DNA of 64,000 nt from Escherichia coli (GTDB taxonomy: Bacteria > Pseudomonadota > Gammaproteobacteria > Enterobacterales > Enterobacteriaceae). The stretch lies in NCBI RefSeq assembly GCF_003790525.1, contig NZ_CP033634.1; one strand, given 5' to 3'. Under the pieces are notes generated by a model, which worked only from the letters and a program-made list of their open reading frames with translations, had not been told where the DNA came from and did not search any database. The position numbers and the translations under genes were made by a program. The first letter of the stretch is position 1; each line of letters starts with the position of its first letter. Positions 20,840 through 24,279 of the stretch are shown piece by piece.

Positions 20840-21523
20840 ATGTCCCGTTTTATCCTGGGTGACTGCGTGCGAGTTATGGCCACGTTTCCGGACAATGCTG
20901 TCGATTTCATCCTCACCGACCCGCCGTATCTCGTCGGTTTCCGTGACCGTTCCGGGCGCACCATTGCCGGTGACGTTAACGATGACTGGTTGCAACCTGC
21001 CAGCAATGAGATGTACCGCGTACTCAAAAAAGACGCTCTGTTGGTCAGCTTCTACGGCTGGAACCGTATTGACCGCTTTATGGCGGCCTGGAAACGCGCC
21101 GGATTCAGCGTGGCAGGGCACCTCGTGTTCACCAAAAACTACACATCCAAATCTGCGTATGTCGCGTACCGCCACGAATGCGCCTACATCCTGGCAAAAG
21201 GCCGTCCACGTCTGCCACAAAACCCGCTGCCGGACGTGCTGGGCTGGAAATATTCGGGCAATCGTCATCACCCGACGGAAAAGCCTGTTACCAGCCTGCA
21301 ACCGCTGATTGAGAGCTTCACACACCCGAACGCAATTGTGCTGGACCCGTTTGCAGGCAGCGGCTCAACCTGCGTTGCCGCCCTCCAGTCCGGACGCCGG
21401 TATATCGGTATCGAGCTGCTTGAGCAGTATCACCGTGCCGGACAGCAACGACTGGCTGCCGTTCAACGGGCCATGCAGCAGGGGGCCGCGAATGATGACT
21501 GGTTTATGCCGGAGGCTGCGTAA
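20840..21523 (+). CDS. Orphan DNA N6-adenine/N4-cytosine methyltransferase (leading-region type)
   Basis: Motif IV DPPY (FILTDPPYL) and motif I FAGSGST (VLDPFAGSGSTCVAA). Confidence 0.85.
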   Translation: MSRFILGDCVRVMATFPDNAVDFILTDPPYLVGFRDRSGRTIAGDVNDDWLQPASNEMYRVLKKDALLVSFYGWNRIDRFMAAWKRAGFSVAGHLVFTKNYTSKSAYVAYRHECAYILAKGRPRLPQNPLPDVLGWKYSGNRHHPTEKPVTSLQPLIESFTHPNAIVLDPFAGSGSTCVAALQSGRRYIGIELLEQYHRAGQQRLAAVQRAMQQGAANDDWFMPEAA

Positions 21524-21745
21524 ATGAACTATGCCGGACACGAAAAACTTCGCGCCGAAGTGGCGGAGGTGGCCAACACCATGTGTGACCTTCGGGCCAG
21601 GCTGAACGATATGGAGCATCGCTGTCGTTTTGATTCCGATGTGCTTGTTGAACGCCTGACACGCCAGACGCTGTATCGCGCCAATCGCCTGTTTATGGAG
21701 GCGTATACCGAAATTCTTGAACTGGATGCGTGCTTCAAAGATTAA
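21524..21745 (+). CDS. Hypothetical small leading-region protein (73 aa)
   Basis: ORF immediately follows the methyltransferase stop; no family recognised. Confidence 0.5.
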   Translation: MNYAGHEKLRAEVAEVANTMCDLRARLNDMEHRCRFDSDVLVERLTRQTLYRANRLFMEAYTEILELDACFKD

Positions 21746-21757
21746 GGGGGAGACGAA

Positions 21758-22192
21758 ATGTACGGAACATGCGAAACACTCTGCCGGGAGCTGGCAGCGC
21801 AGTATCCGGGAGACACGCCGCTGATGCTGGTTGTCTGGTCCCCGGAAGAGATTCAGGCACTGGCTGACGGTATGGAAATTTCTCTGACCGATCATGAAAT
21901 CAGGACCGTCCTGTCGCGCCTGGAGGACATCCCGGAAGACCAGCGGAGTGAATCCGGTATTTCTTCTGCCGCTGCGATGGAGATTATCAGCAACGTGAGC
22001 GAAAACCGCCAGGTGACCGTCCCTGCTGAACTGCTGGCGTCCCTGATTCAGACCGCCGAACAGGCACTGTGGAAACGTGAATGGGCCGCCCGTGATAACG
22101 GCCTTGCCGTCCCGGAATGTGTTACCCGCCGTCAGGCAGTGATTAATCAGGCCCGCACCCTGCTGAAAAACAACACACACGAAAACAACTGA
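21758..22192 (+). CDS. Hypothetical leading-region protein (144 aa)
   Basis: ORF with RBS GGGGGAG upstream; no family recognised. Confidence 0.55.
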   Translation: MYGTCETLCRELAAQYPGDTPLMLVVWSPEEIQALADGMEISLTDHEIRTVLSRLEDIPEDQRSESGISSAAAMEIISNVSENRQVTVPAELLASLIQTAEQALWKREWAARDNGLAVPECVTRRQAVINQARTLLKNNTHENN

Positions 22193-22306
22193 TGTTATCG
22201 CCGCCTGCCCTCTGCCATTCAGAGACTGACCGGAACCGGGGCGGAACTGGTACTGTCCGGCAGTCAGTGGCAGTCGCTGCCGGTACTTCCGGCAGACGGA
22301 ACGCAG

Positions 22307-22780
22307 GTGTCTTTCCCGTATGCCGGAGAATGGCTGACCGAAGACGAAATCAGGGCTGTTCTTGATGCGGTGCACGATGCGGTACGAAGCATCTGTTACC
22401 AGGTGGCAGAAGATACGCGGCGTATCCGGGCGGCGCTGACCACCACCGGTCAGACGTTGCTGACCCGCCAGACGCGCCGCTTTCGCCTGGTCGTGAAGGA
22501 AAGCGATCATCCCTGCTGGCTCGATGAAGATGACGAAAACCTGCCCGTAGTGCTCGATGTCATCGTGAACCGGGGCGCACGTTTTTCGGCAGTGGAAATG
22601 TACCTGGTCAGCGATTGTATTGAGCATATCCTGTCCAGTGGGCTGGCCTGCGATGTGCTGCGTATACCGGATGAACCGCCCCGCCGCTGGTTTGACCGTG
22701 GTGTTCTGCGGGAGGTGGTCCGGGAAGCCCGGACCGAAATCCGCAGCATGGCGGATGCCCTGGCAAAAATCCGTAAATGA
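22307..22780 (+). CDS. Hypothetical leading-region protein (157 aa, GTG start as drawn)
   Basis: ORF-track entry; start codon uncertain. Confidence 0.45.
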
Positions 22781-22929
22781 TGACACTGGCGGGGTAAATC
22801 CCCGCCTTTTTCCTGCCGGTCCCCGGACAGAGCACAAAGGAAGTCGCCGCCGGCTCCGCTTTACCCGGCCATGCGGGGCATGGCCTTGTGGATTTTCAGT
22901 TATGTGGCCTCAGCGTCGTGTGCGGGCTG

Positions 22930-23153
22930 TGCCGTGCCTCCATCGTAGCCGGGCTTCTGCGGGCGGGTTGCAAGGTAAGGTGAACCGCTGCGGTCACCCG
23001 GTCCCTCCTTCCCGTCTGCCGTGATTTTCCGGTCGTTCACCCGCTCAGATTTCGCGGTCTCACCCTCCAACTCCCGCCAGCCGTGTGCGTCAGGCTGCGG
23101 CTTCCCTTGCGCCCTTGCAACCCTGCAGGCCCGGCAAAGATGGAGGCACGGCA
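22930..23153. promoter_or_regulatory. Long imperfect hairpin (15-bp perfect arms 194 bp apart plus nested inverted repeats), candidate single-strand promoter/initiation structure upstream of the ArdB/KlcA-like gene
   Basis: TGCCGTGCCTCCATC at 22930-22944 versus GATGGAGGCACGGCA at 23139-23153; nested GGGTTGCAAGG / CCTTGCAACCC. Confidence 0.5.
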
Positions 23154-23196
23154 CCGCCCGGTGTCGCGGAATATGTGAACAACGGAGGAAAACATC

Positions 23197-23622
23197 ATGC
23201 AATATGCGAAACCTGTCACTCTGAATGTTGAAGAGTGCGACCGTCTGTTTTTTCTGCCTTACCTGTTTGGCCAGGATTTTCTGTATGCCGAGGCATCTGT
23301 GTACGCGCTGGCGAAAAAAATGATGCCGGAATATGACGGCGGATTCTGGCACTTCATCCGCCTGCCGGACGGTGGCGGTTACATGATGCCGGATGGCGAC
23401 CGTTTTCATCTGGTCAACGGTGAAAACTGGTTTGACCGTACGGTCAGCGCCGATGCCGCAGGCATCATTGTGACTTCCCTTGTGATTAACCGTCAGTTGT
23501 GGCTGTACCACGACAGCGGTGATGCAGGACTGACTCACCTGTACAGGATGCGCGATGCGCAGTTGTGGAGCCACATCGAATTTCACCCCGAATGCAATGC
23601 GATTTACGCGGCACTGGACTGA
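23197..23622 (+). CDS. ardB: ArdB/KlcA-family antirestriction protein
   Basis: 141 aa; [27 protein letters not shown] and [12 protein letters not shown] resemble KlcA/ArdB. Confidence 0.75.
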
Positions 23623-23668
23623 TTAACGGACGGGGCGGCAATGCCGCCCCTGTAAAGGAGACGAGAAC

Positions 23669-24091
23669 ATGTACTGTACTGTTAAAGAAATTATCCGCGA
23701 AGTGCTGGATACAGACGTGCCGGACAGTGAATGCGTTTTTGCCGTGGTGCTGACCCGTGGGGATGTGCGCCACATAGCTCAGGACTGGAGTCTGGCAGAC
23801 GATGAGCTGGAAACCGTCATGCAGCGGCTGGACGATGCCTTTGAGCATGGTGCGGATGTCAGCGTTGTTCACGACGTTGTTCGTGAACTGATGGAAGAAA
23901 AGCGCGCCAGCCGTCATGTGACAGTCCCGGCGATGATGCTGGAAAAAGTGATGGCGCTGGCAGGCAGTGAAATGAAGCGCCTGTATGCCGTCGGAAGTGA
24001 GAACGGGGGCGACGGTGACGCATTCGTCAGGGAGGAACGCGAAGCAATGGACGTTGTGTTACAGGCGCTGGACGGGGAGACGATGTCATGA
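23669..24091 (+). CDS. Hypothetical leading-region protein (140 aa)
   Basis: ORF with RBS AAGGAGA upstream; acidic; no family recognised. Confidence 0.55.
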   Translation: MYCTVKEIIREVLDTDVPDSECVFAVVLTRGDVRHIAQDWSLADDELETVMQRLDDAFEHGADVSVVHDVVRELMEEKRASRHVTVPAMMLEKVMALAGSEMKRLYAVGSENGGDGDAFVREEREAMDVVLQALDGETMS

Positions 24092-24279
24092 ATATCAGCA
24101 CAGAAACCCGCGAAATTCTGCGTAATTACAGGGCCGTGATTAATGCGCGGCGTCGTGAAATGGGGCAGAAACCGCTCACCACCGCGCAGATTGTTGATGA
24201 AATCTGCGATTTTGTGGCGAATCAGCAGGCGGTTTTCCTAGGCGGTCACTACATCTTACAGGGCAGCAGAAACAGGTGA
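24088..24279 (+). CDS. Hypothetical small protein (63 aa)
   Basis: Start overlaps previous stop (ATGA); short. Confidence 0.35.
   Translation: MNISTETREILRNYRAVINARRREMGQKPLTTAQIVDEICDFVANQQAVFLGGHYILQGSRNR

Follow-up and report, generated by a model that had tools for sequence, protein, structure and literature searches.

What do the small genes lying among the antirestriction genes of a conjugative plasmid do? The question is raised by positions 20840-24279 of the window (the whole stretch of DNA analysed, 64,000 nucleotides), which comes from an Escherichia coli IncF plasmid and is identical to pGZM7d. A sequence-only reading had proposed that an orphan methyltransferase, an ArdB/KlcA-like protein and five small open reading frames form an anti-defence island here, expressed early from the single-stranded DNA that enters a recipient.

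The segment itself is the distal leading region, common gene for gene to F, ColIb-P9 and pESBL. It represents the usual oriT-distal end of the IncF/IncI1 leading region, and its interpretation as an antirestriction block is already in print. Antibiotic resistance in Enterobacterales is, of course, carried mainly by F-like and IncI1 plasmids.

Position and orientation of the block

The block and the elements that orient it are these:

20840-21523, plus strand: orphan beta-class N6/N4 DNA adenine methylase, M.EcoGIX / YfeA homologue (NCBIfam PRK13699)
21524-21745, plus strand: YubE-family acidic protein, 73 aa (phrog_4830, 1.3e-36)
21758-22192, plus strand: DUF1380 protein a (YubF/YcgB type), 144 aa, pI 4.6, intact (PF07128, 2.5e-52, full length)
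22205-22780, plus strand: yubG 3' remnant, a pseudogene (YchA-type, normally 258 aa; family profile, RefSeq flag)
22788-22806, plus strand: terminator-like GC hairpin with T run, end of the first unit
23197-23622, plus strand: KlcA/ArdB antirestriction protein, homologue of F yfgB / YubI (Pfam PF03230, 1.7e-26)
23669-24091, plus strand: DUF1380 protein b (YubJ/YcgC type), 140 aa, pI 4.4 (PF07128, 2.9e-4, residues 1-99)
24088-24279, plus strand: YubK-type basic protein, 63 aa, pI 9.8
24439-25101, minus strand: first of three Frpo-type (class 1) repeats (by repeat families; homologous to what separates ssb from the 63-aa gene in F)
35898-35914, minus strand: oriT nick-like sequence GTAGTGTGTGGTGCTTT

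Here, the genes fall into two co-directional units. One holds the methylase, YubE, DUF1380a and YubG; the other holds KlcA/ArdB, DUF1380b and YubK. Six of the seven open reading frames are real genes at these coordinates, each preceded by a Shine-Dalgarno sequence. Homologues occur in F, ColIb-P9 and pSTW0522-31-1, and pairwise dN/dS values of 0.05-0.49 point to purifying selection. The Frpo-type repeat forms the oriT-proximal boundary.

The nick-like sequence is an F/R100-type match with two mismatches, which taken alone is a weak match. It is flanked, however, by an SLT gene and traM, with FinP and the traJ 5' UTR next (at about 36.7 kb); ssb, psiB and psiA give further context. From this setting and the minus-strand position of the site it follows that the minus strand is the one transferred and templates the genes of the block, which stands 11.6-15.1 kb from the nick. 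The proposed placement of the block within the leading region is thus correct, as is the proposed complementarity of its sense strand to the strand that is transferred. Assuming the transfer rate quoted for F (~770-790 nt/s), the block would enter every recipient in ~20 seconds.

The two antirestriction genes

The methylase matches PRK13699 over its full length (488.8 bits against a cut-off of 244; 2.1e-147; residues 1-227 on profile positions 1-226). It carries the catalytic motif IV TDPPY, with DPPY beginning at residue 27, and PADLOC places it in class MTase_II. It is 93.0% identical to its F homologue and 90.3% to that of ColIb-P9, with dN/dS of 0.07-0.12. Its neighbours are an insertion sequence and yubE, and PADLOC found no restriction-enzyme match among the ten open reading frames in 20840-27572. 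As no restriction gene is adjacent, the methylase is indeed an orphan.

An analogous role is played by DpnA, which guards incoming single-stranded DNA in pneumococcal transformation. DpnA (5HEK, E 3.5e-12) is one of the methylase's beta-class relatives with a solved structure, but the sequence relation is distant, and DpnA works within a restriction-modification cassette whereas the methylase here is an orphan plasmid gene.

The methylase is of the type of M.EcoGIX, for which the DPPY motif has been described (PMC7736820) and whose homologues shield pESBL against EcoGIII and EcoRI (PMC4288162; PMC7736820). As an enzyme of this type it would be expected to place strand-asymmetric m6A at SAY sites of single-stranded DNA. 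The same gene order appears in the pESBL gene map (PMC4288162). M.EcoGIX alone, expressed from artificial constructs, methylates in vivo; the purified protein works in vitro only as a Pol I fusion, and its authors suspected an absent intermediary, proposing a host protein (PMC7736820).

The second gene is assigned to ArdB/KlcA by its PF03230 match and by one to KlcA in the PDB (2KMG, 1.8e-18, residues 5-141). The protein is 93.6% identical to YfgB of F and 94.3% to its ColIb-P9 counterpart; the authors of bioRxiv 10.64898/2026.01.09.698686 in turn put F yfgB at 93% identity to ArdB of R64. From its identity to YfgB, the protein would be expected to alleviate type I restriction. ArdB/KlcA mainly targets type I systems, and deletion of klcA (pB10) or ardB (RIP113) had an undetectable effect (PMC11602122). 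The methylase and ArdB already account for part of the restriction evasion of these plasmids.

Hairpins upstream of each unit

Early expression calls for promoters that work on single-stranded DNA, and two candidates stand upstream of the two units:

18893-19024, minus strand: ssp3-type (class 3) hairpin, distal half (basal arm 18893-18921)
19025-20690, plus strand: ISShdy1 (IS110 family), 1,666 bp, within the ssp3-type hairpin (from annotation and from junctions against F and ColIb-P9)
20691-20780, minus strand: ssp3-type (class 3) hairpin, gene-proximal half (basal arm 20752-20780)
22923-23160, minus strand: ssp2-type (class 2) hairpin upstream of klcA, intact

With the insertion sequence removed, the transferred strand of the ssp3-type element folds at -88.1 kcal/mol (z -5.9). 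In a five-plasmid alignment 97.5% of cells are paired, with 13 compensatory pairs against 0-1 in slid controls. The ssp2-type element has 32-nt arms that are 91% complementary and folds at -78.4 kcal/mol (z -4.6); here the eight-plasmid alignment gives 92.1% of cells paired and 28 compensatory pairs, against 4-7 in slid controls. The intergenic region upstream of klcA has a mean identity of 94% to F and pSTW0522-31-1. Wen et al. (2025) and Fraikin et al. (2026) place class 3 (ssp3) and class 2 (ssp2) promoters at these positions, and position together with sequence conservation with F suggests that the two hairpins are ssp3 and ssp2.

When ssp2 was deleted from F, transfer fell 36-fold with EcoGIII in the host and 5-fold with EcoKI, and substitution of ssp3 for ssp2 restored it (bioRxiv 10.64898/2026.01.09.698686). 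The same study reports that ssp2 acts as a roadblock to complementary-strand synthesis, and a rifampicin experiment with F shows that the timing of conversion is independent of newly made plasmid proteins. Transconjugant RNA-seq has the operon transcripts of KlcA and of the M.EcoGIX homologue going up in both F and pESBL (PMC12672017).

The plasmid studied here, however, has no contiguous ssp3 stem-loop 5' of its methylase. Both halves are present, with the 1,666 bp of ISShdy1 (transposase at 19127-20143) between them; the structure is unbroken in F, ColIb-P9 and three other contigs. The proposal of early expression from single-stranded DNA therefore survives in part. These operons are induced in transconjugants of F and pESBL, and the ssp2-type hairpin is intact, but early expression of the first unit is doubtful here because its upstream hairpin is split.

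The small proteins

The start of yubE abuts the methylase stop (TAA-ATG), and its dN/dS is 0.05-0.16. Homologues of YubE carry PF27407, and in divergent plasmids their genes adjoin or overlap that of the methylase. A Pfam-A scan of the 73-aa open reading frame itself gave no match; the precomputed PF27407 matches belong to homologues that are 42-70% identical.

The AlphaFold model of DUF1380a is all-alpha (mean pLDDT 83.6). RefSeq flags this gene as frameshifted; the flag reflects an over-long reference start, as MYGT is the start in all homologues. An acyl-carrier-like identity was considered for DUF1380 and set aside, the PP-binding match being weak (E 0.0065) and the serine after the near-invariant Gly67 not conserved. 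DUF1380b matches phrog_9024 (2.2e-5) and aligns over its whole length with DUF1380 family members. Its stop is overlapped by the start of yubK (ATGA), for which dN/dS is 0.05-0.09 and only close relatives appear, on enterobacterial plasmids.

Divergent contigs were examined by exact-protein context look-ups. The orders methylase-YubE-DUF1380 and Antirestrict-DUF1380 are kept in contigs whose DUF1380 is only ~24-36% identical to the 144-aa open reading frame. The slot after DUF1380a varies, holding an 89-aa gene in one contig (L014) and a second DUF1380 in another (L009). Thousands of plasmids, belonging to two incompatibility groups, have kept the small families.

The remaining small frame, at 22307-22780, is the longest open stretch of the yubG remnant and aligns to positions 103-258 of the 259-position profile. 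A deletion of ~232 bp took the start codon, the ribosome-binding site and ~100 codons (the 5' third), and no Shine-Dalgarno sequence precedes the GTG of the surviving frame. RefSeq labels the remnant a pseudogene "missing N-terminus". Public data hold many fragments, as well as in-frame DUF1380::YubG fusions.

Thus, the five small, acidic proteins of no assigned function in the sequence-only reading need amendment. Four are intact genes; the fifth is a gene remnant, as the profile match, the deletion and the absent Shine-Dalgarno sequence indicate. Four of them are indeed acidic (pI 4.4-5.5), but the 63-aa product is basic. The want of assigned function is correct biochemically, but two of the proteins belong to Pfam DUF1380, and homologues of the 73-aa protein to PF27407, "YubE".

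Are the small proteins inhibitors of recipient defence?

A check fixed in advance sought homology of the small open reading frames to proteins of unrelated known function, which would refute an anti-defence role. None was found: against Pfam, NCBIfam, PADLOC and the PDB they gave no match to any entry of known function, and the anti-defence proposal stands unrefuted. They show, equally, no sequence or fold similarity to a characterised defence inhibitor. The DUF1380 and YubE profiles found nothing meaningful among PDB sequences, the AlphaFold models of DUF1380 and YubG gave only generic fold matches, and no DNA-binding or enzymatic signature was seen in the small proteins. A literature search with DUF1380 and the Yub/Yf gene names found no functional study.

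Two other readings were rejected. Membership in a defence system was set aside, as PADLOC matched only the two methyltransferases. Phage ancestry fared no better; the PHROGs matches are all of "unknown function", and a tblastn search with DUF1380a against 50,697 phage records was empty.

The anti-defence idea for this block is already known, having been published by Samuel et al. 2024 (PMC11541004). Their Supplementary Table 1 places the small families here among the largest of leading regions, where they are enriched; by member names and median position we take them to be families 6, 7, 10, 11 and 14, all labelled "Uncharacterized". The pESBL TnSeq table scores the homologues, Hp9-Hp13, as neutral with a laboratory K-12 recipient (PMC4288162). 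A leading-region gene need not, of course, be anti-defence; HerB/YfjB, a zygotically induced leading-region protein, reprogrammes host transcription (PMC13370423). An anti-defence role for the four intact small proteins is plausible.

A more specific proposal is that DUF1380b, YubK or both, co-transcribed with klcA, act as a new kind of inhibitor, directed at type II restriction or some other defence. This draws on the 36-fold loss upon ssp2 deletion with EcoGIII, a type II system, set against the mainly type I range of ArdB/KlcA. We regard it as rather improbable. Since the fold of DUF1380 is without relatives beyond the family itself, such a role would mean a new class of inhibitor.

Weighing the explanations

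The explanation that we prefer, with a probability of roughly 0.6, is a leading-region block of two hairpin-led units whose small proteins are made in an early burst. In this model, drawn from the F and pESBL literature, the stem-loops would fire as single-strand promoters on incoming DNA until second-strand synthesis shuts them off. The methylase would modify the entering strand promiscuously, blunting type II restriction, while ArdB/KlcA would relieve type I restriction and ssp2 would stall complementary-strand synthesis, prolonging early expression. The four intact small proteins, because they are co-transcribed, would be produced in the same burst, with YubE and YubK presumably translationally coupled to the genes upstream. 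They would most likely be inhibitors, or partners that bind other proteins, and so broaden or fine-tune restriction evasion and establishment. The first unit, its hairpin split by an IS110-family element and its yubG truncated, appears degraded in this plasmid, so that normal induction from single-stranded DNA is expected of the KlcA unit alone. Against this explanation, the shared gene order may have come down as a single inherited module among Enterobacterales plasmids instead of signalling functional coupling, and none of the small proteins is linked by direct evidence to a defence system.

The small proteins might instead be dedicated accessory subunits, YubE (perhaps with DUF1380a) regulating or targeting the single-strand methylase, and DUF1380b with YubK serving KlcA/ArdB. 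The junctions invite this: yubE abuts or overlaps the methylase gene here and in divergent contigs, yubK overlaps DUF1380b, and both antirestriction genes have a DUF1380 paralogue downstream. The inactivity of purified M.EcoGIX without its Pol I fusion is also what a missing subunit would give. Yet M.EcoGIX by itself methylates in vivo, and the slot after DUF1380a is variable, so that accessory subunits seem unlikely, if worth keeping in mind. Quite doubtful, too, is a part in establishment apart from defence, through single-strand handling, second-strand timing or host reprogramming. HerB/YfjB is a precedent, the genes adjoin elements that control second-strand synthesis, and YubK, small and basic, is compatible with nucleic-acid binding. 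Set against these are the missing DNA-binding and enzymatic signatures, conversion of F on a schedule independent of new plasmid proteins, and the neutrality of homologue disruption for transfer into K-12.

That same neutrality would suit passengers that are decaying or hitch-hiking and do nothing at present, as would the truncated yubG and disrupted hairpin of this plasmid and the fragments and fusions in public data. Passengers would hardly be expected, however, to show the dN/dS values seen for all these genes, 0.05-0.09 for yubK, to persist across so many plasmids from two incompatibility groups, or to keep their order down to ~24-36% protein identity; we consider this very improbable.

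Comparison with known plasmids

The corresponding segment of F (NC_002483 54166-57837; yfeA ... yfgB; YubE-YubK) has the same genes in the same order and orientation, with protein identities of 92-98%, the same hairpin upstream of klcA, and an Frpo-type element after the block. It differs in that the plasmid here has the methylase-upstream hairpin split, lacks the 5' third of yubG, and carries an extra module before ssb, with a DUF3560 protein, a class I methyltransferase and its own Frpo copy.

In the IncI1 plasmids pESBL and ColIb-P9 the block likewise lies between umuDC/dinI and ssb, and reads M.EcoGIX-Hp9-Hp10-YchA-KlcA/ArdB-Hp12-Hp13, with identical gene lengths (684, 222, 435, 777, 426, 423 and 192 nt). 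Their transfer system, however, is MOBP/MPF_I, and they keep an upstream DUF1281 gene, an intact hairpin and an intact yubG. The anti-defence islands of Samuel et al. 2024 (PMC11541004) are also near oriT, transcribed from the T-strand and bordered by umuDC, and in them uncharacterised families stand beside an orphan methylase and genes of recognised antirestriction function; by member names and positions, the families of the locus are among the top 14 in Supplementary Table 1. Nothing of substance separates the locus from them; it is one of the cases behind the concept.

YubE, the two DUF1380 proteins and YubK are among the most abundant uncharacterised plasmid families, and assigning them a function would be useful. 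No element of a new kind is present at the locus. What it contributes is a natural variant, with one single-strand promoter interrupted by an insertion sequence and one gene truncated, which could act as a ready-made comparison for the contribution of the first unit.

The insertion is not confined to this plasmid. pSTW0522-31-1 carries ISShdy1 at the identical site (1662/1666 nt identical), and about 90 of 4,676 matching E. coli records have it. Independent targeted insertions were considered and rejected for the pSTW0522-31-1 match; the element and its flanks form one 97.5%-identical segment, so shared descent or recombination explains it.

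Gene Content and Position of the Block

The block at 20840-24279 is a textbook locus, correctly recognized in the sequence-only reading, which called it a candidate anti-defense island. This is not new, being now the published view. It holds for two antirestriction genes; the small ORFs are without a positive match.

20840-21523, plus strand: orphan methylase, a full-length PRK13699 member with a DPPY motif
21524-21745, plus strand: YubE, a family so named in newer Pfam releases
21758-22192, plus strand: DUF1380a, a DUF1380 paralogue
23197-23622, plus strand: KlcA/ArdB, family assigned by sequence
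23669-24091, plus strand: DUF1380b, a DUF1380 paralogue
24088-24279, plus strand: YubK, 63 aa, with close relatives only, on enterobacterial plasmids
19025-20690: ISShdy1 (IS110 family), 1,666 bp, within an internal helix of the hairpin 5' of the methylase
24439-25101, 27769-28430 and 33191-33764: three Frpo-type (class 1) repeats, the first starting 3' of the block

Seven ORFs had been listed, and all are present. One of these (22307-22780), however, is no gene of its own. It corresponds to the last 157 residues, a conserved part, of the 258-aa YubG/YchA, is called a pseudogene by RefSeq, and has no Shine-Dalgarno sequence before its GTG. The start and N-terminal third of yubG were lost by a deletion of ~232 bp, whose edges carry the short microhomology CTGCCCT/CTGGCCT; the same deletion is found in a few other plasmids, from chicken and pig. 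The DUF1380a/yubG junction (22150-22310) is itself a deletion hotspot; public data include DUF1380::YubG proteins fused in frame (375 and 418 aa; P0034, P0112 and others).

Every gene has a pairwise dN/dS between 0.05 and 0.49 against the plasmids F, ColIb-P9 and pSTW0522-31-1, and all ORFs but one have good ribosome-binding sites. The yubG remnant aside, the block ORFs are real genes. The 63-aa product, which had been counted among small acidic proteins, is basic (pI 9.8). The two DUF1380 paralogues share 26% identity. M.EcoGIX homologues in ColIb-P9 and F match the methylase at 90-93% identity, and no endonuclease gene adjoins the methylase gene.

The methylase stop codon is followed without a gap by the yubE start codon, the yubK start codon overlaps the stop codon of DUF1380b, and a terminator-like hairpin (22788-22806) lies 3' of the yubG remnant. 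Thus, the block is organized as two units, one running from the methylase to the yubG remnant, the other from klcA to yubK.

This arrangement is widespread. At least 5,000 plasmids in PLSDB match 20600-24500 by megablast, most of them conjugative, of IncF type and from Escherichia, Klebsiella, Salmonella or Shigella; one of the matches, E. coli pGZM7d (NZ_CP129283.1), is 100% identical. The order of the seven genes is identical in F (NC_002483, 54166-57837) and in the IncI1 plasmid ColIb-P9. The gene table of pESBL gives the same order with equal gene lengths, as M.EcoGIX, Hp9, Hp10, YchA, KlcA/ArdB, Hp12 and Hp13 (PMC4288162).

Context also bears out the proposal that these genes lie in the leading region, with their sense strand complementary to the transferred strand. 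The block is followed 3' by ssb, a ParB-like gene, psiB, psiA, sok, a DUF932 gene and an SLT gene, past which come a nick-like sequence (35898-35914, minus strand), traM, the traJ 5' UTR and FinP. Because the nick-like site and its neighbors are so placed, the minus strand is the one transferred, and the region below 35.9 kb is the first to enter. The distance from the block to the nick is 11.6-15.1 kb.

Hairpins Upstream of the Two Units

The region 5' of klcA folds, on the transferred strand, into a 238-nt stem-loop (22923-23160; z -4.6), in an intergenic region 94% identical to that of F. In an alignment of eight plasmids, four of which are divergent metagenomic or genomic contigs, 92.1% of cells were paired, and compensatory changes were seen in 28 pairs, against 4-7 when the partners were slid; none of 500 shuffles reached the observed values. 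This is the position given for the class 2 single-strand promoter ssp2 by Wen et al. 2025 (PMC12672017) and by Fraikin et al. 2026 (bioRxiv 10.64898/2026.01.09.698686), an element that drives yfgB (ArdB) and stalls second-strand synthesis.

A second long stem-loop lies upstream of the methylase in F and ColIb-P9. Its counterpart in the window, with the IS removed in silico, folds at -88.1 kcal/mol (z -5.9); over five distinct sequences, 97.5% of cells were paired, and 13 pairs showed compensation, compared with 0-1 in the slid controls. By its position, this hairpin would be the class 3 promoter (ssp3), described 5' of M.EcoGIX in the papers on F and pESBL.

In the window, ISShdy1 splits this hairpin, leaving basal arms at 18893-18921 and 20752-20780. 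The insertion may abolish early expression of the methylase unit from single-stranded DNA. Of the 4,676 E. coli records that match, ~90 (~2%) have it. Plasmid pSTW0522-31-1 has a copy at the same site (1662/1666 nt identical), within a co-linear segment that is 97.5% identical; shared descent therefore suffices to account for it.

Standing of the Anti-Defense View

In transconjugants of F and pESBL, transcript levels are raised for two operons, that of KlcA and that of the M.EcoGIX homologue (Wen et al. 2025, PMC12672017). F without ssp2 shows reduced transfer into wild E. coli strains, with a 36-fold decrease into a host carrying EcoGIII (type II) and a 5-fold decrease into an EcoKI host; replacing ssp2 by ssp3 restores transfer in the EcoGIII case (Fraikin et al. 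2026, bioRxiv 10.64898/2026.01.09.698686). Ard proteins are described as acting mainly against type I systems (PMC11602122), so the EcoGIII effect offers a hint, though no more, that another part of the ssp2 operon is important. Against the anti-defense view, TnSeq of pESBL found the homologues neutral (PMC4288162), and HerB/YfjB is a leading-region gene that acts on host physiology, not defense (PMC13370423).

The small proteins had been proposed as plausible inhibitors of recipient defense systems. Homology to proteins of unrelated known function would have refuted this, and none was found. Nor did anything speak for it; sequence searches of Pfam, NCBIfam, PADLOC and PDB gave trivial matches or none. 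Their PHROGs families are "unknown function" throughout, with no phage match. The AlphaFold model of DUF1380a (mean pLDDT 83.6) is all-helical; its N-terminal part has five helices, and a long helical hairpin makes up the C-terminal part. Families with these gene names are among the 14 largest leading-region-enriched families of Samuel et al. 2024 (PMC11541004), where the small ones are "Uncharacterized"; Foldseek gave no anti-CRISPR or antirestriction structure matches there, apart from a few antirestriction ones in families 10 and 14.

Among the new evidence on the small proteins, their gene context in divergent contigs is the most useful. There, the methylase-YubE-DUF1380 and Antirestrict-DUF1380 orders are kept even where the DUF1380 shares only ~24-36% identity with the 144-aa ORF. 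The methylase gene and yubE still adjoin directly or overlap, and the yubG slot is variable.

Local Variants and Neighboring Modules

The IS-split hairpin, the truncated yubG and an extra DUF3560/methyltransferase module are minor local variants. The module (25319-27572), which F and ColIb-P9 lack, has a copy of the duplicated Frpo-type repeat on either side. It contains a 76-aa ORF and genes for a 459-aa DUF3560 protein and a 187-aa class I SAM methyltransferase (PADLOC mad2-like at 1.2e-20). Just 5' of the 76-aa ORF, overlapping its start, is a match to Rfam AS-pc01 ("antisense to pHK01_035"; 25222-25324, minus strand) at 86.7 bits, over the gathering score. A perfect (CTGCTA)x5.8 hexamer array (27752-27786) lies directly 5' of the second Frpo-type repeat, where F has a CTT-rich run.

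On the other side of the block, within 16324-18546, umuD (17804-18241) and a dinI-like gene (18238-18546) are retained, while of umuC only the N-terminal 42 codons survive (17676-17804, minus strand), beside an IS2 copy. Just outside the leading region, genes that RefSeq names as encoding PIN-domain and AbiH-family proteins stand side by side (14626-16327); the pair could be a defense or abortive-infection module.

The leading region is modular across plasmids. A divergent relative of it, on the metagenome/MAG contigs L006 and L007, has an antirestriction gene, Ral (PF11058), flanked by DUF905 and the ParB-like gene (9065-9265 in L006, 9051-9251 in L007), and contig L014 has ArdA and a HicAB pair.
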